Shown: positions 4,567-31,300, counted from the stretch's first letter. The stretch: 38,659 bases of DNA from an uncultured archaeon (GCA_964423085.1 CAYRDB010000002.1:1-38659); one strand, 5' to 3'. Notes: generated from the letters alone by a model not told the origin. A program made the numbers and translations.

Positions 4567-6648
4567 ATGACTTCGGTTCTTCAGGTAAAAAAGCGAGACG
4601 GCAGGATAGTAGATTTTGAAAAGGAAAAGGTAGCTCTAGCGATATGGAAGGCTGCCGAATCTGTCGGCGGCAAGGACAAGTCCAAATCCGAAGAGCTGGC
4701 GAACAAGGTCGCAGAGCAGGTCGAGAAAGAGTTCAGCGGCAAGATTCCCAGCGTGGAAGATGTGCAGAACATAATAGAAAAGATACTTATCAACGAGGGC
4801 CATGCGACTGTAGCAAAAGCGTACATACTATACAGACAGAAGAGAGTGGAAGCCAGGAAGATGAAGGCTGTTCTGGGAGTGACCGACGAGGTTAAGATGA
4901 GCCTTAACGCGCTGAAGGTCATGGCCAGCAGGTATCTTATCAGAGATGAGAACAGGAAGATAGTCGAAAGCACTTCTCAGTTGTTCAGAAGAGTAGCCAT
5001 GGCTATAGCCGAACCTGAGAAGAGCTACAGCGGGGATGAGAAAGCGAAAGAATACGAAGACCTTTTTTATGACATGATGGTAAAGGGAGAGTTCCTTCCA
5101 AACAGCCCCACTCTCATGAACGCCGGAACCGAGCTGAGCCAGCTGTCCGCGTGCTTCGTTCTCCCTATACCGGACTCGATACCCGGAATATTCGACTCTG
5201 TGAAGAACACCGCAATAATACACAAGAGTGGAGGGGGGACCGGATTTTCTTTTTCGAACATAAGGCCTAAAGGAGATGTGGTAAAGAGCACAGGAGGCGT
5301 GGCTTCAGGCCCGCTGTCTTTCATGAACGTTTTCAACGCGGCTACAGACGTGATAAAGCAGGGCGGCAAGAGAAGGGGCGCGAACATGGGCATACTGCGC
5401 GTCGACCATCCGGACATACTAGAATTTATAACAGCTAAGGAGAAGGAGGGCACGCTGAGCAACTTTAACTTCTCGATAGCAACAACAGACAGTTTCATGC
5501 GCGCTGTGGAAAGCAATTCCGAATACGACCTGATAAATCCTAGGAGCAAGAAACCTATAAAGAAGCTCCCAGCCAGGGCGGTATTCAACCTGATGGTGAT
5601 GATGGCGTGGAAAAACGGCGAGCCCGGAGTGGTGTTCATAGACAGGATAAACGCATACAATCCAACTCCGGCAATAGGCGAGATAGAGTCCACGAACCCG
5701 TGCGGTGAGCAGCCTCTGCTTCCATACGAGTCATGCAACCTGGGCTCGATAAACCTTGAAAAGATGATGTCGAACAGCCACTTTGACTGGGAAAAACTGA
5801 GAAGGACAGTCCACCTTTCCGTCAGGTTCCTCGATAATGTGGTCGACCAGAACAAGTATCCGATCAAGGAGATAGACGATATGACAAAAGCCAACAGGAA
5901 AATAGGGCTTGGCGTGATGGGCTTCGCGGACATGCTGATAAAGATGAAGATACCTTACAACTCCGAGGCTGCCATAAAGATTGCCGAGGAGATAATGAAG
6001 TTTATACAGGAAGAATCTAAGAAGGCGTCTGTGCAGCTTGGAAAAGAGAGGGGTCCGTTCCCCAACTTTGAAAAGAGCGTTCTGAAAGGAAAATACGAGA
6101 CAATAAGGAATGCCACCACTACGACCATAGCGCCTACCGGAACCATAAGCGTGATAGCAAACTGCTCCTCGGGAATAGAACCGATATTCGCAGTGTCTTA
6201 TGTAAGGGACGTGAGCGACAGCCTGGGGCACGAGCTCGTGGAGATAAATCCGACATTCGAAACAGCCATGATAGAAAGAGGCATGTACACGGACGAGCTG
6301 ATAACAAAGATTTCGCAGAACGGCGGCATACAGAGCATAGAGGAAATACCGAAGGATATAAGGGATGTTTTTGTCACAGCCATGGACATAGCTCCAGAAT
6401 GGCACATTAGGATACAGGCTGCGTTCCAGAAATACACTGACAACGCGGTGTCCAAGACCATAAACTTCCCGACGTTCGCGACTCCGTACGACGTGGAAAA
6501 GGCTTTCATGCTTTCCTGGAAGATGGGGTGCAAAGGAGTGACAGTGTACAGGTACGGCAGCAGGCAGAAGCAGATATTGAACATAAAGTCTGGGGAAGCC
6601 AAAGTCTCGGACGACTACACTGGCGGGTGCCCGCACTGCTCCCTATAG
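4567..6648 (+). CDS. nrdJ: ribonucleotide reductase, class II (adenosylcobalamin-dependent) with N-terminal ATP-cone
   Basis: ATP-cone start (VKKRDGRIVDFEKEKV). The active-site block TNPCGEQPLLPYESCNLGSINL is the class II form, not the class I NLCxEI form. The C-terminal tail ends GGCPHCSL. A GGAGG lies 8 nt upstream of the ATG. Confidence 0.88.
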   Translation: MTSVLQVKKRDGRIVDFEKEKVALAIWKAAESVGGKDKSKSEELANKVAEQVEKEFSGKIPSVEDVQNIIEKILINEGHATVAKAYILYRQKRVEARKMKAVLGVTDEVKMSLNALKVMASRYLIRDENRKIVESTSQLFRRVAMAIAEPEKSYSGDEKAKEYEDLFYDMMVKGEFLPNSPTLMNAGTELSQLSACFVLPIPDSIPGIFDSVKNTAIIHKSGGGTGFSFSNIRPKGDVVKSTGGVASGPLSFMNVFNAATDVIKQGGKRRGANMGILRVDHPDILEFITAKEKEGTLSNFNFSIATTDSFMRAVESNSEYDLINPRSKKPIKKLPARAVFNLMVMMAWKNGEPGVVFIDRINAYNPTPAIGEIESTNPCGEQPLLPYESCNLGSINLEKMMSNSHFDWEKLRRTVHLSVRFLDNVVDQNKYPIKEIDDMTKANRKIGLGVMGFADMLIKMKIPYNSEAAIKIAEEIMKFIQEESKKASVQLGKERGPFPNFEKSVLKGKYETIRNATTTTIAPTGTISVIANCSSGIEPIFAVSYVRDVSDSLGHELVEINPTFETAMIERGMYTDELITKISQNGGIQSIEEIPKDIRDVFVTAMDIAPEWHIRIQAAFQKYTDNAVSKTINFPTFATPYDVEKAFMLSWKMGCKGVTVYRYGSRQKQILNIKSGEAKVSDDYTGGCPHCSL

Positions 6649-6685
6649 GCTACGGTTTTTAACTTTGGGACTTTAATTGATTCTT

Positions 6686-6997
6686 ATGAATCCACTTTTC
6701 ATACTACTGGGCACGCTAGACATTGTCGCAGCGTCCATAACGATATTCCAGTTTTCAGAAGCGGCCGCGCTCTACATGATGGTATACATGCTCGCCAAGG
6801 GAGGGTATTTTCTTGTGCTTCTAATAGCGACCAAAAACTTTATGCCACTATACAGTATATTATCCCTAGTGGACATTGTCACTGGCGCAGCTCTCGGAGC
6901 AATAGCGATGGGTGTTAATTCCGACATATTTTTAACAATCGGTATAGCAGCTGCGATAAAGGGAGCGTATTCGACCGTGTCTGCGTTCCTTAACTGA
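6686..6997 (+). CDS. small integral membrane protein (about 3 TM), unknown function
   Basis: Hydrophobic 103-aa ORF from the first ATG (the track ORF starts at a TTG at 6677). It sits between nrdJ and the corrinoid adenosyltransferase with 28-37 nt and 9 nt gaps. Confidence 0.5.
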   Translation: MNPLFILLGTLDIVAASITIFQFSEAAALYMMVYMLAKGGYFLVLLIATKNFMPLYSILSLVDIVTGAALGAIAMGVNSDIFLTIGIAAAIKGAYSTVSAFLN

Positions 6998-7006
6998 GGC
7001 GTTGAA

Positions 7007-7543
7007 ATGGAAGATGAAAATGAAATCGGGCGGGGAATGGTTTACCTTTACACAGGAACAGGCGCGGGCAAGACAACCAATGCTCTAGGAATAGCGATGA
7101 GGTGCGTGGGCCACCAGAAGAAGGTTGTGATTATACAGTTCCTAAAGTGGTGGAAAAACACGGGAGAATACAAGATAAGGAACCGTCTGAAGCCTTACTA
7201 TGAAATATACCAGTTCGGCAGGAAGGGGTGGATAGGATTCAAGAACCTGGACAACAGGGACAGGGTGCTCTGCGAGAAAGCTTTCAACTTCGCCAAGAGG
7301 GTGGTGGCTGACAAAAAGCCCCACGTTCTGGTGCTGGACGAAATAAACATAGCCCTGCACAGGAAGCTGCTGGACATGAAACAAGTGATAGACTTTTTGA
7401 AGAACCTCCCGCCAACCACGGACGTGGTGCTCACGGGCAGGTACGCCCCAGAGGAGCTCTGGGACGTGGCCGACTATGTGAACGTGATAGTGAGCAACAA
7501 ACAGACAAAAAAGCAGGTTGCGAAGGAAGGAATACAATATTAA
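7007..7543 (+). CDS. cobA: ATP:cob(I)alamin adenosyltransferase, CobA/CobO/BtuR type
   Basis: P-loop GMVYLYTGTGAGKTTNALGIAMRCVGHQKKVVIIQFLK and LVLDEINIAL are typical of CobA-type adenosyltransferases. Length is 178 aa. Confidence 0.85.
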   Translation: MEDENEIGRGMVYLYTGTGAGKTTNALGIAMRCVGHQKKVVIIQFLKWWKNTGEYKIRNRLKPYYEIYQFGRKGWIGFKNLDNRDRVLCEKAFNFAKRVVADKKPHVLVLDEINIALHRKLLDMKQVIDFLKNLPPTTDVVLTGRYAPEELWDVADYVNVIVSNKQTKKQVAKEGIQY

Positions 7544-9622: not shown

Positions 9623-10843
9623 TCACTTGTGCCCTGCCCAATCGGCCACGTATTTGTTTTCCAAACCGTGTATGTAGTTGTATGCTGCAAGCGCCGCCTT
9701 GCATCCTTCTCCGGCTGCGACAACTATCTGCTTGAATGGGGTGTCGGTCACATCGCCTGCCGCGAATATGCCCTGGCATGAAGTCTCGGAGTGCTTGTTG
9801 GTCTTTATCTGGCCGAGATCGTCTACGTCAACATTTCCTCCGACAAATCCGGTGTCAACATCCGAGCCTATCTCGACAAAAACGCCATCCACCTTTATTT
9901 CTTTTTCAGAGCAGGAATCGTCAGACACTATGATTGAATTCACAAAATTGTCCCCGCGTATCTCGCTTAATTTGGATTCCATTACAAGCTCTATGTTGCT
10001 TTTCGTCTTCGCTTCGTTTACCACATTCTCGAAAGCCCTGAACTCTGACCTCCTGTGTATGAGGTACACCTTTCTTGCAATCTTTGAAAGAAGCAGCGCA
10101 GCATCCAGAGCGGAATTGCCTCCTCCTACCACAGCGACGGTCTTTCCCTTGAACAATGGCGCATCGCATGTGGCGCAGTAGCTTACCCCCTTACCGCTGA
10201 ACTCGTCCTCCCCCGGCACGCCGAGGTTCCTAGGGGTCTTTCCGCTGGCTATTATAACAGTTTTGGAGTTGTATTCATGGTCGCATGTCGAGACCGTGAA
10301 TATTTTCTGGCCCCGGGTTTCGCTCTGAGAGATTTTTACAACGTTCTTCATTATTATTTCAGCGCCGAATCCCCTGGCTTGAGACTCGAATCTTTTCGCA
10401 AGGTCTGTGCCATCCACCTTCTCAAGGCCGGAATAGTTCTCTATCTCTGTTGTCCTGGCCATCTGGCCGCCTATGTCCTTTGTAATCACAAGCGTCTTCA
10501 TCTCTCTGCGTGAAGAATAGAGGGCGGCAGTGAGGCCTGCTGCAGATCCGCCTACTATGATAACATCGTAAAGAACGCCACTGGAATTGTTTGATTCAAC
10601 GGGATTATCTTGAGCTTTGTCCAGAAGCTTGTCCATCATAGGAACGTCGAATCCCACTATTATTTTTCCGTCTATGTCTATGACAGGAACTCCCATCTGG
10701 CCCGATTTCTCAATCATCTCCTGAGCAGCAAAGCTGTCATTCGAGACGTTTATGTCCTCGAACTCAAACCCCTTTGACCTTATGTAGTCCTTTGCCATAT
10801 GGCAATACGGACAGGCATCGGTTGAATAGACTTTGATTTTCAT
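9623..10843 (-). CDS. trxB: glutaredoxin-like domain fused to low-Mr thioredoxin reductase
   Basis: N-terminal Grx fold with CPYC (KVYSTDACPYCHMAKDY...GVPVIDIDGKIIVGFD). This is followed by FAD GxGxxG (IIVGGSAAGLTAAL), redox CATC (SYCATCDAPLF), NADPH GGGNSALD and HRRSEFRA (the HRRxxxR NADPH motif). Confidence 0.85.
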   Translation of the reverse strand: MKIKVYSTDACPYCHMAKDYIRSKGFEFEDINVSNDSFAAQEMIEKSGQMGVPVIDIDGKIIVGFDVPMMDKLLDKAQDNPVESNNSSGVLYDVIIVGGSAAGLTAALYSSRREMKTLVITKDIGGQMARTTEIENYSGLEKVDGTDLAKRFESQARGFGAEIIMKNVVKISQSETRGQKIFTVSTCDHEYNSKTVIIASGKTPRNLGVPGEDEFSGKGVSYCATCDAPLFKGKTVAVVGGGNSALDAALLLSKIARKVYLIHRRSEFRAFENVVNEAKTKSNIELVMESKLSEIRGDNFVNSIIVSDDSCSEKEIKVDGVFVEIGSDVDTGFVGGNVDVDDLGQIKTNKHSETSCQGIFAAGDVTDTPFKQIVVAAGEGCKAALAAYNYIHGLENKYVADWAGHK

Positions 10844-10898: not shown

Positions 10899-11270
10899 CT
10901 ATGCGAGCGGGCACCCGGAAATTTCGGACAACTTGGAAAGCTGCTGCATTCCCACAACAGTCTCGTCGCCTATCTTCCAGGTCGGTATGGACCTTATGTT
11001 TTCAGCAACGCATACAGAATTCATGCCAGAGCAGTCCACATATTCTATGTATTTGAAAGAATCTCCGAAAAGCTCCATCTGCTGCTTACACCAGCCACAC
11101 TGGCTTGAGCCATACATAACAACACCCTTTTCACTTAGACATTGGGCAAAATCGTCATATCCGCCAACAGCCGAGTGCTGACCTGTTATCTGAGGAACTA
11201 AAAAGTACATAGTTGCCACTGCTACCACTACAGCAGTTATTGCGACAATAATTTTGGTTCTTGAAATCAT
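10899..11270 (-). CDS. membrane-anchored extracytoplasmic thioredoxin-like protein (CGWC), VKOR-partner type
   Basis: N-terminal TM helix. The segment FAQCLSEKGVVMYGSSQCGWCKQQMELFGDSFKYIEYVDC...SIPTWKIGDETVVGMQQLSKLSEISGC resembles the Trx-like domain fused to bacterial VKOR homologues (MYGAxWCPHCxxQKxLFG...YVEC...YPTW). Confidence 0.7.
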   Translation of the reverse strand: MISRTKIIVAITAVVVAVATMYFLVPQITGQHSAVGGYDDFAQCLSEKGVVMYGSSQCGWCKQQMELFGDSFKYIEYVDCSGMNSVCVAENIRSIPTWKIGDETVVGMQQLSKLSEISGCPLA

Positions 11271-11316
11271 TTGACCACTTTTTTGAATGCCTGTTTGAAG
11301 TATTTATGGCTTTCTA

Positions 11317-11676
11317 TCATTCGCATGCAAGCGACCCTTGTGTGATTACGCAACTTCCGGTCAACGGATCGCAAGTCCCGAAAACGGCAAGGTTGTACAG
11401 ACTGTAAAACGAGTAAATCATGCTAGCAAAGAAAACTATCGTGAATATCCAGGACAGTACATCAAATCTCCTATAAACAAACCTGGCCAGCGTCGGATTC
11501 TTCTTCATTAGCTTTGACACTATGCCTGACTTTATCCTCTGGTCCAGTTTTGTGTCGCACGTCCTGAAGCTCATCTTCAGGAACACGCACCGGAAAGCCT
11601 CTTTTGCAGTAGACCTGTATTTGGCAGAGAAAACGCTAAGCATTCCAAACACTACAAGCGCTATTAGACATATCAT
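11317..11676 (-). CDS. 2-TM membrane protein with cysteine pairs on both faces, unknown family
   Basis: TM1 spans aa 2-17 and TM2 aa 73-100. The loop between them is strongly basic (about 15 K/R), so predicted cytoplasmic, and carries C30/C40. The external tail is TCDPLTGSCVITQGSLACE. There is no CxxC. Confidence 0.5.
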   Translation of the reverse strand: MICLIALVVFGMLSVFSAKYRSTAKEAFRCVFLKMSFRTCDTKLDQRIKSGIVSKLMKKNPTLARFVYRRFDVLSWIFTIVFFASMIYSFYSLYNLAVFGTCDPLTGSCVITQGSLACE

Positions 11677-11687
11677 GTAATCGCCGA

Positions 11688-12743
11688 TTAGCAGCTTCCG
11701 TTGCTAGTAGAGCCACCGCTGTAGCTCTCTGAAAACGAAACCGAAGCCTGTTCTTTGCTCAGCTCTTGAGAGCACACAGACGGTTCAGCAGAGAATCCGC
11801 AACAAAGAAGCGTCTTTAGTGCGTCCGCTGTCCTTCCACCGAAATCGTACTCGCTCACAATCTGCCCGTTCATGACTAGAGTTGGAGATCCAGATACCAT
11901 ATATTGGTCCTGTATTTCAAAGTCTTCCTCTGCGTAGGCTATTCCCCTCTCGCTGTCAGACATGCAAGCGTCCAAAGAGTCTGTGTCTATTTCAGCCTCT
12001 GCAAGGCACTCTTCCGAATTACCCGCTTTCATGAAGCATGAAACATAATCCCAGTATTTGTCAGACTGCTCCTCTCTTATGCATATCTGCCTGAGATTCT
12101 CTTCTGCTTCTCTTTCTCCGTGCATGGCTGTTATTTCGCCGTTTACAACATCTCCTATGTACCTTACTTTTATGTTCTCAGCCAGTTCCGGAATATTCTT
12201 CACAACTTCGTAAAGTATCCTCTGCATCTGAACACCGTACGGGCATTCTGATACTACAAAAGCGTTTATAACAGGGTCCTGAGCCTTTGGAACATCGTCG
12301 CAAGTCATAGCAGGCTGCGTTGTGGTAGTAGTAGAAGAAACCTTGTTAGAGGTGTATATCACTTGTGGCAGAAACATTTCGCCATCTCTTGTGACATATA
12401 GCGTCTGATTGTCGGAAATCCCTTCTCCAAACACGGATATTTCGAATTCGATTATTCCGCTGTCTGTCAACTCATATCCAAGCAGTTGGATGTCCATTTC
12501 GCCGTAGTATGTCTCATAATAGTCTGTTATCCATGCTACGACCTTGTTGACAGCGGCGGCATCAGAATCTTGACCAACAAGAAACAAATTGCCTGAAATG
12601 CCGAACAAATTAGGTTGTAAGAAAAGAGCCACTACAATTGCCACAGCCACAAAGGTAGAAATCATCCACGGGTTTATTTTTGGAACCCTTATCGTTATAG
12701 TCCTTGGCTTCTCTGCCTCCGAGTTTTGATTGCTTTCTGCCAT
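11688..12743 (-). CDS. membrane-anchored extracytoplasmic DsbA-like thioredoxin-fold protein with CPYG in place of CxxC
   Basis: N-terminal TM anchor, a small alpha/beta domain and a Thr-rich linker. The Trx fold follows: FVVSECPYGVQMQ ... helical insert ... VSGSPTLVMNGQIV (DsbA-like cis-Pro loop). The tail is Cys-rich. Confidence 0.55.
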   Translation of the reverse strand: MAESNQNSEAEKPRTITIRVPKINPWMISTFVAVAIVVALFLQPNLFGISGNLFLVGQDSDAAAVNKVVAWITDYYETYYGEMDIQLLGYELTDSGIIEFEISVFGEGISDNQTLYVTRDGEMFLPQVIYTSNKVSSTTTTTQPAMTCDDVPKAQDPVINAFVVSECPYGVQMQRILYEVVKNIPELAENIKVRYIGDVVNGEITAMHGEREAEENLRQICIREEQSDKYWDYVSCFMKAGNSEECLAEAEIDTDSLDACMSDSERGIAYAEEDFEIQDQYMVSGSPTLVMNGQIVSEYDFGGRTADALKTLLCCGFSAEPSVCSQELSKEQASVSFSESYSGGSTSNGSC

Positions 12744-12804: not shown

Positions 12805-14025
12805 TTATGTAAGCCTCGATATCTCCCGAACTTTGTCAACGAACAGCCTAGCCTCTTCTTCGGTGTTGTACAAGTACACAGAAGCGCGCACAGAACCCTT
12901 TATGCCGTGCGAATTGAACCACGAATGTACGCAATGGGCACCTGAACGCACCATTATGTTCGCAGTGTCATCGAGCATAAGCGCCACATCGTGAGGAAAC
13001 ATGCCTTTTATGTTGAAGGAAACTATTCCCCCGCGCATTTTAGGCTCCTGCGGGCCAACTATCGAGACCCCGTTTATTCCCAACAGCTCTTCGGTGATGA
13101 TTTCATTTAGCCTGGATTCGTGCTTGCCTATGTTTTCAAGTCCCACGCCTTCGATATATTCTGCGGCAGCTGCCATTCCAATCGATCCAGCATAGTTCTG
13201 AAGCCCCGCTTCGAACCTCTGCGGAGGCGGAAGAAGCACATAATCGTCGTATGTCGAGTCCTTGACAGTCTCTCCTCCCATTGCGTAAGGCTGCATCTTT
13301 TCCAGGATTTCCTGCTTCGCGTAAAGCGCCCCAGTGCCGCTTGGTCCGAGCATCTTGTGTCCTGAAAACGCAAGGAAATCTACATCAAGCTTCCTGACAT
13401 CCACTTTTTTGTGCGGCACGCTCTGCGCACCGTCCACAAGGACCATGGCACCGGCATCGTGAGATATCTTTGCTATTTCTTTAACAGGTAGAGTGTATCC
13501 GTCGAAATTGGACGTGTGCACCACAGAAACGAGCTTTAGGCTTCCTTTCAAAGACTTTACCTTCCTTTCGAACTCTCCGACATCGAAAGTCATGTCTTCC
13601 GCAGAGAAAACCATTTCGTGCTTCAGTCCCGCAACCTTTACCAGCCTAATCCAGGGAAGCAGATTGGAGTTGTGTTCGCGGTCGGAAGTAAGAACAACAT
13701 CGCCCGATTTCAATCCTATTGAATTGGCGACCATGTTTATCCCTTCGGTTGTGTTCTTTGTGAAAATTATCTCGCTCTCGCGCTTGGCGTTCACGAACTT
13801 TGCAATCCTCTTTCTGGCGTCATGATATTTCTCTGTGACAATGTCGCCGAGCTTGTGGGAGCTCCTGCCTGCGCACGCGGGATAGCTGTAGTAATACTCG
13901 TTCATAGCATCCACAACCTGCTTCGGCTTTAGGGACATGCACGAGTTGTCGAAATATACTATCGGTTTGTTGTTGAACTTTCTCTCGAGGACCGGAAAGT
14001 CCTTCCTTATTTTTTTCACATCCAT
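12805..14025 (-). CDS. sufS: cysteine desulfurase, group II (SufS/CsdA-like) PLP enzyme
   Basis: PLP lysine context FSGHKMLGPSGTGALY. The catalytic loop VRSGAHCVHSW is the group II RxGHHC type. Length is 406 aa. Confidence 0.88.
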   Translation of the reverse strand: MDVKKIRKDFPVLERKFNNKPIVYFDNSCMSLKPKQVVDAMNEYYYSYPACAGRSSHKLGDIVTEKYHDARKRIAKFVNAKRESEIIFTKNTTEGINMVANSIGLKSGDVVLTSDREHNSNLLPWIRLVKVAGLKHEMVFSAEDMTFDVGEFERKVKSLKGSLKLVSVVHTSNFDGYTLPVKEIAKISHDAGAMVLVDGAQSVPHKKVDVRKLDVDFLAFSGHKMLGPSGTGALYAKQEILEKMQPYAMGGETVKDSTYDDYVLLPPPQRFEAGLQNYAGSIGMAAAAEYIEGVGLENIGKHESRLNEIITEELLGINGVSIVGPQEPKMRGGIVSFNIKGMFPHDVALMLDDTANIMVRSGAHCVHSWFNSHGIKGSVRASVYLYNTEEEARLFVDKVREISRLT

Positions 14026-14112: not shown

Positions 14113-14389
14113 GGCGAGCCGGCCAGGTAGCTTCGGGTTGCTCTCAAAGGCAACCTGAGGAAGTTCCATCCATCAAAGGAGCCGTGAAAGCCGAAAGGCA
14201 GAGTAGCGGCACGCTGAGAAGCATCCGGCTGTATCAGAAACGGCACTTTGCTGCCCCGTTAACAATGAGGGAAACCTAGTTGGGGTAGTGTAAGATGAAA
14301 CGGACAGCAGGTCCTGATGCGATGCAAGCTTAGGCGCTAAGACAAATGCTACCCAACACAGAAGATGGGCTATGGCTGGCACGCCGCCA
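14113..14389 (+). ncRNA. rnpB: RNase P RNA (archaeal type A-like, compact, about 277 nt)
   Basis: CR-I-like GAGGAAGUUCCAUCC at 14155-14169. Also present are GUGAAAGCCGAAAGGC, CAGAAACGG, GGUAGUGUAAGAUGAAACGG and a CR-IV/V-like ACACAGAAGAUGGGCUAU. The 5' GGCGAGCCGGCC can pair with the 3' GGCUGGCACGCC (P1). A T5 run follows at 14390-14394. Ends are approximate. Confidence 0.8.
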
Positions 14390-19633: not shown

Positions 19634-21577
19634 ATGGCCACTAAAGGCGTTGAAAAGATAAAGAGTCTTCGAGGTTCCTTGTACAGGAAGATTGTCGAAA
19701 AATCTGAAAGCAAGAAGAACCCATCTCATTCTGTAGTAGGCTCGCTTCCCGGATTCAAAATACAAAGCAACGAGCACATAGTAGAGTTCCCTTCCACAAA
19801 GGACCTGACCACAATAGACTTTACGTATCCTCTAATGGAGCCATTCGCGTATGTGAATGTAAAATGGGACTTCAACTCCAAGGAGCTGCTATACAAAGTC
19901 ATAGAGCCTGACATGGACGAGAAGGAGAAAACGTTGCTTAAGAAAATATCAAACGCGTTGATAGAGCTCGTAGAGGTGGAACTTACTGCCATAAACAAGG
20001 AAGGCAAGGCCATAGAGTACATAGAGAAGCAGATTAAGAAGGTGATAAAGGACTTTGAATTTTCAATAACTCCCGAGCAGTACACAAAGATAATGTACTA
20101 CATTTACAGGAACTTCATCGGGTTCAATGAGCTCGAGCCGCTTCTCCAGGATCCGAACATAGAGGACATAAGCTGCGATGGCACTGGAATACCAATATAT
20201 GTAATACACAGGAAGTTCGGCTCGCTGAAGACCAACATTTTGTTCAACGACATGGAATATCTGAGGGAGTTTGTGATAAAGCTGGCAGAGCGATGCGGCA
20301 GGTATGTCAGTTATGCAGAACCGATACTGGATGGCACTCTGCCTGGAGGATCGCGTATATCAGCCACGCTCGCAGGCGACGTTGCCACTCGAGGGCCAAC
20401 TTTCACAATAAGAAAGTTCAGCGAAAAGCCTATATCGCCGATAGAGCAGATAGGATTCAAGACTGCTTCCCCTGCTGTTCTGGCATATTACTGGTACGTG
20501 GTAGAGCACGGCGCATCCATGCTGTTCGTAGGCGGGGTAGCCACTGGAAAGACCAGCTTCCTGAACAGCATATGCATGTTCATACCACCTGAAGCGAAGA
20601 TAGTCAGCATAGAGGACACCAGGGAGCTCAAGATACCAAACGAGCACTGGGTGCCCAGCCTGGCAAGGACTGGTTTCGGAATACCCATGCCTAGCGGAGA
20701 AAAGTATGGAGGTGTCTCGCTGTACGACCTTTTGAAAGAGAGCTTCAGGCAGAATCCGGACTATGTAATAGTAGGAGAGACTAGGGGTAAGGAAGCATAT
20801 GTAATGTTCCAAGGAATGAGCTCTGGCCATCCCAGCATGAGCACGTTCCACGCTGGATCTGTGGAAACAGTGGTGAAGAGGCTCACAACGCCGCCAATAG
20901 AGCTTTCACCGTCGCTCATCGAGAGTCTGAACATCGTGACCATTATGATACACGCAAGGGACAAAGGCAAGTCCGCTAGGAGAATAAAGGAGATTGTAGA
21001 AATAGAAAAGGTCGTACCAAAGACCGACGAGGTTGTAACGAACACTGTTTTCAAATGGAACCCTGTCAAGGACGACTACGAGTGGGTCAGCAACAGCATA
21101 ATGGTTGAAAAGCTCGTGCAAGCAAGGGGCGGAAAAGTGGAGGAGGCCTACGCCGAGATAGAGAGGAGGAGGAAAATATTGGAATGGATGTACAATAGCG
21201 AGATACGCGATTATCAGGAGGTCACGAGCATCATAAATAGGTACTACAAAGAGCCAGAAGTGTTGATGAAAGAGATAGGAATGTCCACCGAGCTTCCAAA
21301 AGTGAATGTGCCTGCTCACATGCACTCTGAGACAGCATTGAGTGCCGTCCACAGCGAGCCGACAGTGTCGCCAGAGCCGGCAATGGAATCGCCTGTGCCA
21401 AAGTTGTGCAAGAATGATTCCGAACCGCCTGAACGCAAAGGATTTGGAAACGAAATAAAGAAGCCGGCTGTTGTAAAGGCCAAGCTGTCGCCAAATTCAA
21501 AGTTGAAACTGGATGACTTGAACTCGATATTCAGCCTGATGAAGTTTGATTTCCTGAAAGAGGAAAAGGAAGTGTAA
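19634..21577 (+). CDS. type IV pilus/archaellum-type (GspE/FlaI/VirB11 superfamily) assembly ATPase with C-terminal extension
   Basis: Walker A FVGGVATGKTSFLNS, Walker B-region DYVIVGETRGKEA, and His box SGHPSMSTFHAG. About 98 extra C-terminal residues are low-complexity. Confidence 0.85.
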   Translation: MATKGVEKIKSLRGSLYRKIVEKSESKKNPSHSVVGSLPGFKIQSNEHIVEFPSTKDLTTIDFTYPLMEPFAYVNVKWDFNSKELLYKVIEPDMDEKEKTLLKKISNALIELVEVELTAINKEGKAIEYIEKQIKKVIKDFEFSITPEQYTKIMYYIYRNFIGFNELEPLLQDPNIEDISCDGTGIPIYVIHRKFGSLKTNILFNDMEYLREFVIKLAERCGRYVSYAEPILDGTLPGGSRISATLAGDVATRGPTFTIRKFSEKPISPIEQIGFKTASPAVLAYYWYVVEHGASMLFVGGVATGKTSFLNSICMFIPPEAKIVSIEDTRELKIPNEHWVPSLARTGFGIPMPSGEKYGGVSLYDLLKESFRQNPDYVIVGETRGKEAYVMFQGMSSGHPSMSTFHAGSVETVVKRLTTPPIELSPSLIESLNIVTIMIHARDKGKSARRIKEIVEIEKVVPKTDEVVTNTVFKWNPVKDDYEWVSNSIMVEKLVQARGGKVEEAYAEIERRRKILEWMYNSEIRDYQEVTSIINRYYKEPEVLMKEIGMSTELPKVNVPAHMHSETALSAVHSEPTVSPEPAMESPVPKLCKNDSEPPERKGFGNEIKKPAVVKAKLSPNSKLKLDDLNSIFSLMKFDFLKEEKEV

Positions 21578-21607
21578 AGCATTTTCTTCAACGAATGTCA
21601 ATATTAA

Positions 21608-22483
21608 ATGATGGCTAATCCAAGATCGCTGGCCGTGTCTATGTTCGGCTGGGCCGTTGACAAGTACGGCGACATGTTCACAGTGGTAAAAGAAAGTCTG
21701 CCGAAAGCCGGAATAAAGATGACTTTCCGAACCTACATGAGCATGGTTTTCTTCATTGCGGCGCTTTCGTACGCCAGCAGCTTCGCGATGCTCATATTCG
21801 CACTAAGGATAGTTGAGCTGTCACTAATGATGACAATCGCTTACTTGGTCTTCATACCTTTCACAATAGCAATATCGTGCGTTATAATGTTCATATTCTA
21901 CCCGTACAACAAGATGAGCGAGAGGAAAAAGAGCATAGAAACCAACCTGCCCTTCGTTCTGACGCACATGAGCGCAATCGCAGAGTCCGGGGTGCCCCCT
22001 TACGTGGTGTTTCGACTAATAGCGGAGTTCGAAGAGTATGGGGAGGTTTCTACTGAAATGAAGAAGATAGTCAGGAACATAGACACATTCGGAGTCAACC
22101 CGCTGAAATCTGTAAAAGAGGTGGCTGAGAGAACACCATCCGACAAGCTGAAGCAGATTCTTCTCGGATTTGTCACAACCACGGAATCGGGAGGAGACGT
22201 GAAGGTTTACCTGAAGAACGCCGGCCAGTCGGCGCTCTTCGACTGGAGGATAAAAAGGGAAAAGTTCCTACAGCAACTCTCCGCGTACGCGGAGTTCTAC
22301 ACTGGTATACTTATTGCCGCACCTCTGTTCATAGTCGCCCTTTTCGCAGTAATGGGAATGATACAGTCGAATGTTGCGGGATACGATATAATGTTCCTAA
22401 TGCAAATGAGCGTTTACGTCCTTATACCAGCCCTCAATGGCGGATTCCTGCTGTTCCTAACGGGCACCGAAGTGGAGATGTAA
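21608..22483 (+). CDS. pilus/archaellum platform membrane protein, single T2SS-F-like domain (FlaJ/TadB-like half)
   Basis: Polytopic protein. A cytoplasmic helical domain (LPFVLTHMSAIAESGVPPYVVFRLIAE...FGVNPLKSVKEVAERTPS..LKQILLG) is flanked by TM helices. Confidence 0.7.
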   Translation: MMANPRSLAVSMFGWAVDKYGDMFTVVKESLPKAGIKMTFRTYMSMVFFIAALSYASSFAMLIFALRIVELSLMMTIAYLVFIPFTIAISCVIMFIFYPYNKMSERKKSIETNLPFVLTHMSAIAESGVPPYVVFRLIAEFEEYGEVSTEMKKIVRNIDTFGVNPLKSVKEVAERTPSDKLKQILLGFVTTTESGGDVKVYLKNAGQSALFDWRIKREKFLQQLSAYAEFYTGILIAAPLFIVALFAVMGMIQSNVAGYDIMFLMQMSVYVLIPALNGGFLLFLTGTEVEM

Positions 22484-22484
22484 A

Positions 22485-23342
22485 ATGGGAAAAATAAAGA
22501 TAAAGATAGGCAAGAAAAAGTTCGAAATCAGGGACAAGATACTGATACTTGTAGTGATGAACGGTGTGCTCTCGGGATCGATAGCTGCAATAAACTTTTT
22601 GCTCCTAAGGAGCTCGCCGACGCTTTTCTCTTCGATAAACGTTATCGCGATGTTCATATTCGCGTTCCCGATAATACTGATAAAATACAGCGAATACAAC
22701 AAGAAGAAAAACCTCGAGGAGATGTTTCCCCTTTTCCTGAGGGATTTTGTAGAGTCGATAAGGGGAGGAATGACCGTACCCGCTGCGATGAAGTCCATAA
22801 CGAGGAACGACTACAAGGAGCTCAACCCGCACGTAAGGAAGATGTCAGCGCAGCTTGACTGGGGAATAACAGTAGAGAGGGCCTTAATGAACTTTGCGAA
22901 AGAGTCCCAGTCCAAGCTCATAATGAGGATAATATCATCGGTTAGGGAGAGCCACAGATTCGGAGGCAACCTGGCCGACACACTGGAAGCGCTAAGCAAC
23001 ACAGCGGTCGAGGTGGAAAGGCTAAGGGCGGAGAGGAAGCTCTACCTGCACTCCCAGATGATAACCGGCTACATAGTTTTCTTTGTATTCCTAGCGGTAA
23101 TGATAGGACTGGAAAAGTTTCTTGTTCCTAGCCTTAGCGGAGCGTCGATGGGACTCGGCGAAAGCACAAGCGCCACTTTCAGCGAGGACTTTAACGACAT
23201 ATTCCAAAACCTGATACTGATACAGGGGCTTTTCGCCGGACTGTCAACAGGAAAGATGGCTGAAGGCTCGATAATAGCCGGCCTCAAGCACAGCGTAACC
23301 ATGATGTTCATAGGATTCATAGTGTTTACAATAGCAGGATAA
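22485..23342 (+). CDS. pilus/archaellum platform membrane protein, second T2SS-F-like half (FlaJ/TadC-like)
   Basis: Same architecture (FPLFLRDFVESIRGGMTVPAAMKSI...DWGITVERALMNFAKES). It starts 1 nt after the preceding stop. Confidence 0.7.
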   Translation: MGKIKIKIGKKKFEIRDKILILVVMNGVLSGSIAAINFLLLRSSPTLFSSINVIAMFIFAFPIILIKYSEYNKKKNLEEMFPLFLRDFVESIRGGMTVPAAMKSITRNDYKELNPHVRKMSAQLDWGITVERALMNFAKESQSKLIMRIISSVRESHRFGGNLADTLEALSNTAVEVERLRAERKLYLHSQMITGYIVFFVFLAVMIGLEKFLVPSLSGASMGLGESTSATFSEDFNDIFQNLILIQGLFAGLSTGKMAEGSIIAGLKHSVTMMFIGFIVFTIAG

Positions 23343-23343
23343 A

Positions 23344-23808
23344 TCAGCACAAAGTGACGTGGCTGGATTCCACTTGATCGTCCACATTAGAGCAGTTGGT
23401 GTACACTCTTATGGTCTGGTACGAGCCGCTGTCGACGCTGACATTGAAGGACTTTATCTCTCCTGGAGCCAGCGACATTTGGCTGGAAGCGCAAGAAGTT
23501 CCGTTATTGCACAGGCGTATTGTGTGCGTGGTAGAGTTTGTGTAAAAGACCTGAAGGGTTATGCTTCCGAGATCCTTGTATTTCACGTTCTCTATCCTTC
23601 CATATATGTGGCTGTTGCAGTATTGGACGTTCGAGAGTGATATGCCGGCATAGCTGCAGTATATTTGATTTTCGGTCTCCTCTCCCACTGTGCCGCTTAT
23701 GTCAGAGCTGAACGTCTGCATCCACACGCTTATAATCCCGCCAACTGCAACAGTGAACGCGATAAGAAGCACAGTCGCAATCATGGGCGATATTGCTTTT
23801 GAATTCAT
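23344..23808 (-). CDS. archaeal type IV pilin-like protein (class III signal peptide)
   Basis: N-terminus MNSK/AISPMIATVLLIAFTVAVGG shows the archaeal pilin/archaellin N-terminal signature. The globular part has 6 Cys and several N-x-S/T sequons. Confidence 0.75.
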   Translation of the reverse strand: MNSKAISPMIATVLLIAFTVAVGGIISVWMQTFSSDISGTVGEETENQIYCSYAGISLSNVQYCNSHIYGRIENVKYKDLGSITLQVFYTNSTTHTIRLCNNGTSCASSQMSLAPGEIKSFNVSVDSGSYQTIRVYTNCSNVDDQVESSHVTLC

Positions 23809-23821
23809 TCATACACCCGAA

Positions 23822-24271
23822 TCAAGCCTTTGTGCACACCTTCTCCACCCTAAGCTCTGGGCATTGTGTGCCTATAATTATCCTGCTGAAGTCGTCCTGA
23901 ACATTTGTTATTTGGAACGATCTAAGCGCTCCTGAGGGCAGGTTGCCCTCCAAGTTTATCGGACTCGAAACCGAGCTGTTCGGGAACATCAGATATGCCT
24001 GAAGGGTGTTGAGCTCTATGTTCTGGTGGTTCTCGAGTATTAGATTGACAGCATTTGTAGAATTGTAGAAAACGCAGGAGTATATCGAAAAGTCCGCGAA
24101 CCTGCAGTCTATTTCGGTCTGGTTGGTCTCAGGGAGCGAAGTCTTCACATAGCTCGTCGCCCAGTATGCCATAAGTCCGGCTATAGTCATTGTGACCGCT
24201 ATGAGCAAGACCGCTGCTACCAGCGGAGATATCCCTAAAGACGACATATGTGCTAGTTTTTTAACGTGCAT
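23822..24271 (-). CDS. archaeal type IV pilin-like protein (class III signal peptide)
   Basis: SSLG/ISPLVAAVLLIAVTMTIAG, with 4 Cys in the globular part. The start may instead be Met9 (24247). Confidence 0.7.
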   Translation of the reverse strand: MHVKKLAHMSSLGISPLVAAVLLIAVTMTIAGLMAYWATSYVKTSLPETNQTEIDCRFADFSIYSCVFYNSTNAVNLILENHQNIELNTLQAYLMFPNSSVSSPINLEGNLPSGALRSFQITNVQDDFSRIIIGTQCPELRVEKVCTKA

Positions 24272-28353: not shown

Positions 28354-31300
28354 TCAACGAAAGGCTTCCTTTTTCTTTTCGATGAATATTTTCAAAAAAG
28401 AAAAGTTTTTGAAATATTCCGGCTCGTACGAAGTCCTTCTTACTTTTATTACAAATCCCTTCCTGTAAATCAGATATGCTATGAGAAGCACCAGGAATAT
28501 TATTAGCAGTATTATCAGGAGCGTTACTATATCTGTCTTGAACAGACTCTTTCCATATCCGTCGTCCTGCAATACCTCTATTGTCCCTGTCTTGGAGTCG
28601 GCTATGTTACCTAGTCCGGTTATCTTGAATGTATGCAAGCCTGCTGAAACGTCGCACGGCACAGATGCGTATCCGGTTATTATCTTGGTCTCTCCCCTTT
28701 TAACAGCCACGCTCTCGGGAACTTGTATCCATTCTGCAGCATCCCCGCTAACTTTAAGGTCTATCATGCTGTCCTCGCCGGTGTTCCTAACTTTGAACGT
28801 GAAGCTGGAAACCGAGCATTTCTCAAGGTCGTACTTGTCGTCAACATATATTTTAGGCAGTCCCTTGTTAAGTTCGTCCGGAAGCACGCACTTTGAGTTA
28901 TCGCATCCGTACGGGCAGTACTCTACAATCTTCCATCTTGTCTCATAGTTGTCGTCCAAATACTTCTGCTGCTTATAGTCCCCGAAGCACCTGTAGTCAG
29001 ACTGGCTTTCGGCAGATTTGTCCTTCACATAAAAGCTGCTTGAATAAGCTGTCTTCGAATAACTCGTACTGTCGCTCCAGTAGACAAGCTTTATTGCGTA
29101 TTTTCCAGAGTCTTTGACCACCTTTGAGCATGTAGAATACTTTATGCTGTCTCCTGACACATAGAGACGGTTGTAATCGCAATCCATTGACACGCAGTTG
29201 GTGTACCCGTCGGCCCTGCAAACATAAGCGTTGAAATTGAACCATCTTCCAGAATCTTCAAAGTTCTGAATCTTTATTCTGGCCGAAACCGTATCGCGCT
29301 CGTAAGAGTCCGACGGTCTAGATATAGACGCTGAGAATGACTGGCTTTGATCAGAATCGCATCTGTAGTCGTTATATATGCTAGTATACGAGCATGAACC
29401 GCCCGAACAGTAATAGTCGCGGTAGGTGGTTCCGTAGCAGCCGTCGTTGCTGTTGCAGTTCTCTACGTCAGTCCAGGACGACCATTCTGTGCAAGAGTCT
29501 GAATCGTAGTTGCCGCATGTCCTCTTCTGGACAATGCCTCCGCTGCACCTGCTTTCTTCTGCTCCAGCTGAGCATTCGTTATAGCAAGTGTCTGAAGTAC
29601 ATCTATAATCGTTGTAGCTCGAAGTGTACGAGCAAGCTCCATTAGAGCAGTAATAGTCGCGGTATGTGGTTCCGTAGCAGCCGTCGTTGCTGTTGCAGTT
29701 CTCTACGTCAGTCCAGGACGACCATTCTGTGCAAGAGTCTGAATCGTAGTTGCCGCATGTCCTCTTCTGGACAATGCCTCCGCTGCACCTGCTTTCTTCT
29801 GCTCCAGCTGAGCATTCATCGGTGCACTGTGATCCAGAAACACAAGCAGGAACTCCAGGAGTGCAATATTCATTAGATGAACACTCGTCTGCTATGCTGT
29901 AAGGTGTCCAAGCAGTCGAGCCGTCGCATGAAGACCCTGTCCCAGAGCAGTATTTTTGAAGATATCTAACTCCGACGTCACTTCCATATCCAGTACCCCA
30001 CGGACAAGAATATTGTACATCTATATCAGAATCGCATACATAGCTAGACGGCCTGTAAAGGTCGTCAGGACAGCTGGCGCTTGAACCAGTGCAGTATTCT
30101 GCCACATCGCATGGTCCGAAAGATGCCCTGCAAACTGTGCCGGAAGGCTTGAAAGTCCCTGTTGTTGTGTCGCAGCAAGCGCCCGAAGTGCACTCAGATG
30201 AAGTGCACCTAGCGTCGTTGTAGCTCGAAGTGTACGAGCAAGCTCCATTAGAGCAGTAATAGTCGCGGTATGTGGTTCCGTAGCAGCCGTCGTTGCTGTT
30301 GCAGTTCTCTACGTCAGTCCAGGACGACCATTCTGTGCAAGAGTCTGAATCGTAGTTGCCGCATGTCCTCTTCTGGACAATGCCTCCGCTGCACCTGCTT
30401 TCTTCTGCTCCAGCTGAGCATTCATCGGTGCACTGTGGAGCTGAAACGCAAGCAGGAACTCCAGGAGTGCAATACTCGCTATAAGAACAGTAGTCTGCCA
30501 CACTCCAAGAACCCCATGATGTAAGTCCGGTACAATATGGGCTGTCTCCGGAGCAGCGCCTCTCCATATATCTAACTCCGACATCATTGCCAAAAGTCGT
30601 CCCCCAAGGGCATCCATATTCCGTCTGCTCTTTTGAATTGCAAACGTATGACGAAGACTTGTACGAGTCTGCTGGACAGCTGGCGCTTGAACCAGTGCAG
30701 TATTCTGCCACATCGCAATTGCCTACAGCAGCTCTGCACATTGTTGTAGAAGACTTGAACTTGCCTGTCGCTATGTCGCAGCACACTCCTGAAGTGCACT
30801 CTGGTTGGGACACCATCTCATATACAGCCGTCTTTGAAGACGAGTCTTTTGTAACAACTCCTGAGCATCCGCTTGAGCACTCGTATGTATTTCCCCCGTA
30901 AACAACCTGGCTCTGATAGGAGTATGAAACTGTGTCTGAAAGACCTGAAACTGACAGGCTTGATGATGTGGAAGAGTGCTTTGCTCCGTCCACATACATA
31001 TACCAGTAAGCCCCGGAAGGAAGTCCCGATGTGTAAAAGTTAGAAGTGAATGTTACAGGGCTGAAATAAGCGTATATTGTACCGCTGGCCTCTGCGTAGA
31101 ACATTATCGGATTGGAGCTTGTCTCGCCTCCCTCATAACCATCAAACTTTACAAAGCTGTATCCGTCTTTCGGATATGCAAAAAGGGTGACATATTCTCC
31201 GACCGCTACTGTGGCAGTGGTGCTGCTTTCAGTGCATCTTGTATAGTAAGGCTTGTCGTACACGCAGACCTTTCCCTCGCCTCCTGCGACAACAAGATTC

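Follow-up and report, generated by a model that had tools for sequence, protein, structure and literature searches.

Disulfide formation outside the cytoplasm is thought to require either DsbB or VKOR together with a quinone, or an external oxidant. What, then, serves the exported thiol-disulfide proteins of an archaeal locus in which a membrane protein of unfamiliar type stands where DsbB or VKOR would be expected? The question is raised by a stretch of DNA of 38,659 nucleotides (nt) from an uncultured archaeon (GCA_964423085.1, CAYRDB010000002.1:1-38659), referred to here as the window. Within it, genes for two exported proteins of the thioredoxin (Trx) fold flank a gene for a 119-aa protein with two transmembrane (TM) helices. 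The initial annotation had proposed that these three genes (10899-12743) encode a previously undescribed minimal disulfide-formation or isomerisation system with the 119-aa protein as its membrane component. This protein, called the module below, looks like a candidate new membrane component for extracellular disulfide handling in tiny DPANN archaea. Its conserved cytoplasmic partner is a cysteine desulfurase of the SufS type, encoded just upstream of the three genes and outside the annotated trio. The genes concerned lie on the minus strand, and the coordinates of their open reading frames (ORFs) are counted along the whole window:

12805-14025, minus strand: SufS-type cysteine desulfurase (Aminotran_5, TIGR01979 and PDB SufS matches)
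11688-12743, minus strand: 351-aa TM-anchored exported GILT/DsbA-like Trx-fold protein with a CPYG motif (Pfam GILT)
11317-11676, minus strand: 119-aa stand-alone membrane module with two TM helices and five Cys (ORF and family alignments)
10899-11270, minus strand: 123-aa TM-anchored exported Trx-like protein with a CGWC motif, here Trx123 (PDB 4nv2/3kp9)
9623-10843, minus strand: fusion of glutaredoxin and thioredoxin reductase, here Grx-TrxR (Glutaredoxin and Pyr_redox_2; TIGR01292)
Last gene of the same row, which spans 8.5-14.0 kb, minus strand: glutamate dehydrogenase

In this order the genes form one unbroken row, and the spacers from SufS to Grx-TrxR measure 61, 11, 46 and 55 nt. The three ORFs of the initial annotation and the motifs quoted for them were all recovered, with exact coordinates.

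A membrane module with two helices and five cysteines

What kind of protein is the 119-aa product? Searches of Pfam and NCBIfam returned no match even at E≤1, sequence and profile searches of the PDB gave none either (no VKOR chain was among the results), and the best Foldseek match to a PDB structure had E=9. That the protein is not VKOR, DsbB or CcdA had been proposed from the start, and the profile, TM-count and Cys tests for these families were indeed all negative. The protein has 84 close homologs. When a HMMER profile was run exhaustively against 1.84 billion representative proteins, the family grew to 354 clusters at E≤1e-3, and in every cluster the profile match begins at residue 1-2 of the protein. 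Annotation pipelines assign no domain to the module, and its entries are labelled "DsbA family protein", "protein-disulfide isomerase" or "hypothetical protein". Hundreds of entries so named hide an unrecognised N-terminal domain that deserves a family model of its own. Full-text searches of the literature found no description of the module and none of a link between SufS and DsbA.

Named members of the family belong to DPANN archaea without exception. For synteny, 80 genomic loci were sampled with ±10 kb around each module, and all 80 come from DPANN-type metagenome-assembled genomes (MAGs) labelled as Aenigmat-, Woese-, Nano-, Micr-, Iain-, Pace-, Alti- and Nanohal-archaeota, a few of these labels being evidently wrong. 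Binning or labelling errors are likely in the module-bearing MAGs L014, L018, L024, L044, L048, L052, L053, L061, L070, L071 and L079 ("Methanosarcinales"), as well as in L015, whose record is labelled "Aminicenantes" and carries a DPANN-type module.

Non-conservation of the module's cysteines had been named in the initial annotation as an argument against its proposal; all five proved essentially invariant. Among 83 homologs of the 119-aa protein, C3, C30, C40 and C102 are invariant and C109 is conserved in at least 90%, and across 402 unique modules the conservation of C102 and C109 is 100% and 99%, respectively. C118 is not conserved. Further conserved residues lie on helix faces (S17, S75, S85 and N95). 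The pattern common to the 402 modules consists of an N-terminal M-[IV]-C, TM1, a basic loop with C-x9-C, TM2 and, outside, G-x-C-x6-8-C. In the AlphaFold2 (AF2) model of the 119-aa protein, helices span residues 2-16 (TM1), 18-35, 44-59, 61-69 and 71-99 (TM2), with a moderate predicted local distance difference test (pLDDT) score of 70.

On which side of the membrane do these cysteines lie? Family-wide, lysines and arginines average 13.6 in the loop 18-72 against 0.64 in the 25 residues after TM2. This asymmetry of charge, together with the exported DsbA domains that relatives carry after TM2, supports a topology with both termini outside and the loop inside. On this prediction the outer face carries C3, where TM1 begins, as well as C102 and C109, which follow closely on TM2, and the C30-x9-C40 pair lies in the cytoplasm within a basic helical region. 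The charge bias of the whole family is thus in accord with the topology first proposed for the single protein, including its very basic cytoplasmic C30-x9-C40 loop. The possibility that TM1 is a cleavable signal peptide was rejected, as it lacks an n-region and begins at residue 1. C3 was likewise rejected as a lipobox Cys, as it sits at position 3.

The stand-alone modules, among them that of L001 (10001-10456) and P0005, P0008, P0010, P0043, P0069 and P0075, differ at their C-terminal ends. A third TM helix closes some of them, whereas others finish outside the membrane in a Cys-rich tail of about 35 aa that holds 10-12 Cys (for example ACGCEGLCVCDVETCQSPEYAACEGDCSCQREVCG). Such a tail might bind metal or sulfur or act as a redox buffer.

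Fusions of the module to thioredoxin-fold domains

The best indication of what the module does comes from the proteins to which it is joined. In the 80 loci, it occurs as a stand-alone protein of 120-170 aa in about 25, as part of a long fusion in about 49 and fused to a small thioredoxin in 6. The long fusions, of 296-364 aa in total, add a domain of about 180 aa with a C[FY]xC motif near residue 160, and the six small domains are thioredoxin-like with CPHC or CPYC. The unique sequences collected comprise 228 long fusions, 26 intermediate ones and 151 stand-alone modules (about 56% DsbA-fused and 37% stand-alone). By Pfam, the large fused domain is of the Thioredoxin_4/DSBA type (E=8.5e-26 and 6.4e-19), and the first 130 residues of these DsbA-labelled fusions contain no database domain.

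A third kind of partner is found in two further homologs. In P0125 (220 aa), the module is followed directly by a VKOR-type Trx-like domain (...YGAYWCGHCKNQKELFG...YPTW...), which gives the layout of bacterial VKOR-Trx proteins with the new module occupying the position of VKOR. In P0097 (276 aa), two additional TM helices separate the module from such a domain, as if a gene pair like that of the window had been fused. The core of Trx123 matches the two proteins with E=8e-27 and 3e-22, respectively (local phmmer). Nothing speaks more strongly for the module as a functional partner of Trx-fold proteins than these independent fusions to at least three classes of Trx fold. They show the module to be a dedicated membrane partner of exported Trx-fold oxidoreductases (DsbA-like, VKOR-type Trx-like and others). 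The initial view of a conserved Cys-bearing membrane component that partners exported Trx-fold proteins is thereby reinforced.

The nearest structural matches of the fused DsbA domain are 3gyk, BdbD and the DsbA/TsdA of C. diphtheriae, with ScsC behind these. BdbD and C. diphtheriae DsbA/TsdA are oxidases that have DsbB-like or VKOR partners. The reductase-type motif CxPC was found in 0 of 254 fused domains; their motifs are C[FY]xC and, in the small domains, CPHC or CGHC. In the AF2 model of a fusion, the DsbA domain has a pLDDT above 93, the module 55-90 and residues 100-130 less than 60, and there is no confident docking of the module onto the DsbA domain.

Linkage of the module to SufS

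Is there also a conserved partner on the cytoplasmic side? SufS is encoded within 10 kb of the module in 64 of the 69 loci that could be evaluated, the flanks of the other 11 being too short to judge; five loci with adequate flanks are without it. Of the 80 loci, 42 have it as the immediate same-strand neighbour (≤150 nt); another 12 have it no more than 1.5 kb away, and 10 others at up to 10 kb. The gene stands immediately upstream of stand-alone or Trx-fused modules, at -4 to -8 nt (a short overlap), and immediately downstream of DsbA fusions. Since stand-alone modules keep SufS (in 11 cases directly adjacent), the linkage belongs to the module and not to the DsbA domain. The trio of the initial annotation is therefore not the conserved unit, as Trx123 is found near the module in only about 12 of the 80 loci; the conserved unit consists of the module, with or without DsbA, and SufS.

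The desulfurase of the window matches Aminotran_5 with E=3.4e-114 and TIGR01979 with 445.6 bits, slightly below the cut-off of 475.1. Against SufS structures in the PDB it gives E=1e-100 to 1e-97, with the Lys that binds pyridoxal phosphate (SGHK) and the catalytic Cys (RSGAHC) aligned. These alignments indicate that the product of 12805-14025 is a bona fide type II (class V) SufS desulfurase.

The surroundings of the linked genes were surveyed through conserved neighbour clusters and a census of the 224 genes within ±2 genes of the module, SufS excluded, in which the 25 commonest Pfam families of each half were listed. SufE, SufU, SufB, SufC and SufD are not among these clusters or listed families. 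Several loci have a separate IscS-like gene and an IscU of the LPPIK type nearby, and the nearby NifU_N proteins are IscU-type. With a separate IscS-like protein and IscU at hand in several loci and no SufBCD among the neighbours listed, the module-linked SufS may have a role other than bulk Fe-S assembly.

The two exported proteins of the window

Trx123 consists of an N-terminal TM anchor and a Trx-like domain with CGWC. Its residues 41-122 align with residues 192-279 of the Synechococcus VKOR-Trx protein (PDB 4nv2/3kp9/3kp8, E=1.6e-11 to 2.9e-11), so that CGWC falls opposite the CPHC of the Trx-like domain of that protein. Its annotation as a VKOR-associated Trx-like domain with this motif therefore stands, at E=1.6e-11. 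A homology search with Trx123 returned 31 close stand-alone homologs and no VKOR fusions, a result that is uninformative on the occurrence of VKOR in DPANN. In the four Trx123 homolog contexts that were examined, CopA or CcdA-like neighbours take the place of the module, and the assumption that Trx123 always pairs with the 2-TM protein was dropped.

The 351-aa protein had been annotated as an exported DsbA-like protein 11 nt from the module gene. The exported Trx fold and the spacer are both there; in place of a canonical DsbA with CxxC, the protein is GILT-like and monothiol. It passes the Pfam threshold for GILT (30.2 bits, cut-off 22.4), the scores for DSBA (19.7) and Thioredoxin_4 (14.8) lie below their cut-offs, and the PDB offers one weak match, to a DsbA-like isomerase, at E=0.12. 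The active site is CPYG with a single Cys. CP[YF]G is kept in about 20 homologs, and there is no catalytic CxxC. Members of this family also have a conserved C-terminal Cys pair (C...EC). A monothiol GILT-like protein in archaea is unusual in itself. About 28 of the 80 loci have a homolog no further than 10 kb from the module; examples are L002, L003, L004, L005, L026, L028, L033, L043, L044, L048, L058, L070, L071 and L079, among others. In the window, the GILT-like protein and Trx123 each carry a single-TM anchor of their own.

Comparison with known membrane partners

As a membrane protein that works with exported Trx-fold oxidoreductases, the module falls into a known kind of system. It is nevertheless unrelated to every such partner described so far, has a distinctive arrangement of Cys on both faces, and is linked to SufS in a way that is without precedent. 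In VKOR-Trx proteins (Synechococcus 3kp9/4nv2; plant LTO1), a membrane module is likewise fused to or found beside the same Trx-like domain, and the membrane-proximal Cys and the Cys of the flexible loop outside recall the CxxC and loop pair of VKOR. The module is nevertheless without similarity to VKOR (PF07884) in sequence or fold by Pfam, PDB and Foldseek. VKOR is marked by a bundle of four TM helices, a CxxC where TM4 ends and a Cys pair in a loop. The module has two TM helices where VKOR has 4-5, no CxxC anywhere in its 119 aa and no evident quinone site. The invariant cytoplasmic Cys pair of the module is absent from VKOR, and VKOR depends on quinones whereas the module is linked to SufS.

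With the DsbB-DsbA and BdbC-BdbD pairs, the module shares partners that are mostly of the DsbA/Thioredoxin_4 fold nearest to BdbD and C. diphtheriae DsbA/TsdA, as well as a predicted role in re-oxidising an exported DsbA-like protein. DsbB (PF02600) differs in having four TM helices with cytoplasmic termini, in contrast to the two helices and the N-out/C-out arrangement of the module, which gives no Pfam match to it. DsbB also has two periplasmic Cys pairs, one of them a CxxC, while the module has no CxxC. No quinone is implicated here, and fusion of DsbA to the membrane module, elsewhere the exception, is the rule in the new family.

CcdA, DsbD and ScsB link cytoplasmic thiol reductants to exported Trx folds, and in some loci Grx-TrxR or thioredoxin adjoins the module; the family also shows ScsC-like similarity and copper-gene neighbours. 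Proteins of the CcdA/DsbD_TM families (PF02683/PF13386), however, cross the membrane 6-8 times and keep their catalytic Cys within it, one in each half of an inverted repeat, whereas the module crosses it twice and has Cys at the faces only. The module does not match these families in Pfam, and true DsbD_TM proteins are present separately in L051, L072, L085 and L087.

MerT/MerF (with MerP/MerA) and YeeE/YeeD are small helical membrane proteins with Cys on both faces, through which a thiophilic atom passes between a binding protein outside and an enzyme in the cytoplasm. We take them to be the nearest mechanistic precedent for a relay of sulfur from SufS to the outside. The resemblance to MerT/MerF, which are marked by vicinal or paired Cys in TM1, is architectural only, as there is no Pfam match at E≤1 and both topology and Cys spacing differ. 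On the cytoplasmic side, the comparison is with SufS-SufE and SufS-SufU. Type II SufS needs a Cys-bearing acceptor, usually encoded alongside, and the module adjoins or overlaps SufS. Unlike SufE and SufU, to which Pfam and NCBIfam show no similarity, the cytoplasmic domain of the module is helical and of about 55 aa, and the acceptor would be embedded in the membrane. The loci also differ from usual SufS operons, with sufBCD absent from the conserved neighbour clusters and listed families.

Direction of the proposed flow through the module

Which way would electrons or sulfur move? We infer that, through the module, the redox state of the exported partner is linked to chemistry at the cytoplasmic Cys pair. 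The reading we favour, with a confidence in its direction and mechanism that falls a little short of even, is a transmembrane relay of Cys residues or sulfane sulfur that uses the persulfide of SufS to re-oxidise the exported Trx-fold proteins, a quinone-free analogue of DsbB and VKOR. SufS would convert cysteine to alanine and place the sulfane sulfur (a persulfide, formally S0) onto C30/C40, the pair acting as acceptor in the manner of SufE or SufU. The thiophilic sulfur, or its oxidising equivalent, would then pass through the helix bundle, possibly that of a dimer, as in MerT, to reach C3/C102/C109. There it would oxidise the CxxC of the DsbA/Trx-like protein, whether fused or encoded next door, with release of H2S. 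The outcome would be disulfides for Cys-rich surface proteins and pilins in a quinone-less anaerobic DPANN archaeon, with cysteine as terminal electron acceptor. Turnover of a cysteine desulfurase with a dithiol such as dithiothreitol yields alanine, H2S and the oxidised dithiol. DPANN export very Cys-rich surface proteins, on which they rely as symbionts, and a system of module, DsbA and SufS would explain how these are folded.

The oxidising direction is suggested by the lack of CxPC in the fused domains, by the closeness of the fused DsbA to BdbD and C. diphtheriae DsbA/TsdA, and by the Cys-rich exported proteins encoded in the window. CcdA-like proteins beside the module in L051 and L072 further imply that the module is no simple replacement for CcdA. 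Electron-transport chains are absent from most DPANN (PMC8407392), and Nanobdellota are without complexes I-IV (preprint 10.64898/2026.05.13.725050). With no such chain, a quinone-dependent DsbB or VKOR would be left without an electron sink. Most DPANN are likewise not known to synthesise quinones. The export of desulfurase-derived reactive sulfur by transporters of the Atm1/PexA type (PMC6424863) provides a loose precedent.

Several points weigh against an oxidising relay. No Cys lies within the bilayer, transfer of a disulfide across it by a 2-TM protein of this kind is unprecedented, and a relay of S0 is a speculative idea. AF2 models the module with moderate confidence, too low at the external Cys linker (pLDDT below 60) for the geometry of its cysteines to be used. 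Next to a typical DsbA, a persulfide is a modest oxidant, and sulfide is present in many habitats of DPANN. Genes for cytoplasmic reductants adjoin that of the module (Grx-TrxR in the window and in L001; thioredoxin in L004, L005 and L012), genes for copper handling are repeatedly found in its vicinity, and ScsC, to which the fused DsbA also bears a resemblance, is a reductase/isomerase. In addition, complex I is present in some module-bearing lineages, namely Micrarchaeota and Altiarchaeota (PMC8407392). It is somewhat more doubtful whether this would amount to a third prokaryotic route to de novo disulfides, unrelated to DsbB and VKOR, that spends cysteine and needs neither oxygen nor quinones.

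Among the alternatives, the one that survives best is a flow in the opposite direction, which we consider unlikely, if still to be reckoned with. In such a reductive relay of the CcdA/DsbD/ScsB kind, electrons would pass from Grx-TrxR or thioredoxin to C30/C40 and on to C3/C102/C109 and keep the exported partners reduced. In this state the partners could isomerise or reduce disulfides, for instance in cells stressed by copper or oxidants. A DsbD-type pathway needs a cytoplasmic Cys pair, which is invariant in the module and missing from DsbB and VKOR. The gene neighbourhood also offers suitable donors, with Grx-TrxR two genes downstream in the window and in L001 and a thioredoxin gene that overlaps the stop codon of the module by 4 nt in L004, L005 and L012. 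CopA, HMA, cupredoxin and DUF7343 regulators recur near the module, ScsC proteins turn up when the fused DsbA domain is compared with known structures, and Trx123 homologs elsewhere adjoin HMA-DsbD_TM proteins. Yet Trx or TrxR is nearby in only about 10-12 of the 80 loci, as against 64 of 69 evaluable loci for SufS, and the linkage to SufS would be left unexplained. CxPC is found in none of the 254 fused domains, a CcdA-family protein shares the neighbourhood in L051 and L072, and the TM helices are without Cys, a point already made in the initial annotation. Should the flow be reductive after all, the module would still be a new minimal transmembrane thiol relay unrelated to CcdA and DsbD.

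It is improbable that the module serves a traffic of sulfur or thiophilic metal not aimed at protein disulfides. Sulfane sulfur, thiosulfate or polysulfide, or Cu, Zn or Fe, would in that case cross in either direction in the style of MerT/MerP-MerA or YeeE/YeeD, with the DsbA or Trx protein as binding partner outside and SufS as the cytoplasmic sulfur enzyme. The architecture of the module, which recalls MerT and MerF in being a small bundle of helices with Cys pairs on either side of the membrane, would suit this role. So would the tight linkage to SufS, the IscS/IscU genes near the module in several loci, the CopA, HMA and cupredoxin neighbours, the Cys-rich external tails of some stand-alone members, the monothiol GILT-like protein as conserved third partner and the precedent of Atm1/PexA-type export cited above. 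The fused partners are, however, CxxC-bearing DsbA/Trx folds, whose known chemistry is dithiol-disulfide exchange. Moreover, rhodanese, TusA and DsrE are not in the conserved neighbour clusters or listed families, and metal genes are confined to about 15% of loci.

A non-catalytic anchor or scaffold has a slimmer chance still. Its CX9C would bind a structural Zn or an Fe-S cluster, perhaps for dimerisation, and the adjacency of SufS would reflect co-regulation. The module is N-terminal throughout, as a simple TM anchor would be, and AF2 gives no confident docking of module and DsbA. Trx123 and the GILT-like protein of the window, moreover, have single-TM anchors of their own. Five invariant Cys on both faces and the conserved S17, S75, S85 and N95 would nevertheless not be needed by an anchor, and neither a stand-alone gene in about 37% of members nor the adjacency to SufS in both gene orders would be expected. 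Finally, the idea that there is no functional system, the genes being unrelated neighbours and the Cys incidental to a hypothetical membrane protein, could draw on the uncommon adjacency of Trx123 and the module (about 12 of 80 loci) and on the other contexts of Trx123 homologs, and is very improbable and effectively refuted by the recurrent independent fusions to at least three Trx-fold classes, the invariant Cys and a synteny kept across about eight DPANN lineages.

Other neighbours of the module

Trx-fold families dominate the census of 224 neighbouring genes:

Thioredoxin_2: 13 genes
DSBA: 12 genes
Thioredoxin_4: 9 genes
Thioredoxin: 7 genes
GILT: 4 genes
DUF7343 (overlapping MarR-type matches): about 10 genes
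HMA, P-type ATPase and cupredoxin: 3-4 genes each
DsbD_2: 2 genes

VKOR and DsbB are not among the listed families of the census. The Grx-TrxR of the window combines a YruB-type glutaredoxin-like domain and thioredoxin reductase in one polypeptide. With 343.1 bits, it scores 0.35 under the TIGR01292 cut-off of 343.45. It is a cytoplasmic NAD(P)H-dependent disulfide reductase and could be the electron donor if the flow were reductive. The gene holds the same position only in L001 and occurs near the module in about 10 loci. A cytoplasmic thioredoxin is encoded near the module in 4 loci, in 3 of them with the overlap of 4 nt: L004 (7198-7515, CSPC), L005 (5173-5490, CGPC) and L012 (3160-3477, no CxxC found by script). 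In one Aenigmatarchaeota subgroup, SufS, the 2-TM module and Trx form a packed unit, which bears on the direction of electron flow.

L051 and L072 have the gene order HMA-DsbD_TM-cupredoxin, CopA, 2TM-DsbA, SufS, IscS-like and Trx123-like. The HMA-DsbD_TM proteins, of about 500 aa, begin with an HMA domain, continue with a DsbD_TM/CcdA core and a C-terminal region like a cupredoxin, carry a tail rich in Gly and Cys, and are encoded beside CopA-type ATPases and Trx123-like proteins. Loci with such proteins are L051 (6099-9913), L072 (6047-9898), L085 (5375-6838) and L087 (3046-4593).

Putative clients and other features of the window

Which proteins of the window might receive disulfides? The Cys-rich exported proteins pointed out in the initial annotation, with 74, 6 and 4 Cys, are all present:

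28354-31680, minus strand: 1108-aa surface protein with 74 Cys and Disintegrin domains (Pfam E=3e-15), a putative client
23344-24271, minus strand: two archaeal type IV pilin-like proteins (154 aa with 6 Cys and 149 aa with 4 Cys; weak Pilin_N), putative clients

The Disintegrin domain is typical of animal ADAMs and snake venoms, and the 1108-aa protein may be an adhesion protein of an episymbiotic archaeon. The region 19634-24271 holds a cluster like that of a type IV pilus or archaellum, with a T2SSE ATPase, two T2SSF membrane proteins and the pilin-like genes on the opposite strand.

The DNA of the window is archaeal and carries an archaeal RNase P RNA (RF00373, 101 bits) at 14114-14384 on the plus strand, directly upstream of the SufS row and divergent from it. 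An IscU-type NifU_N gene sits at 780-1265, and the window shows no desulfurase next to it. At 4567-7543 are genes for an ATP-cone ribonucleotide reductase and, after it, a corrinoid adenosyltransferase (CobA/BtuR), a pairing that suggests a B12-dependent class II ribonucleotide reductase.

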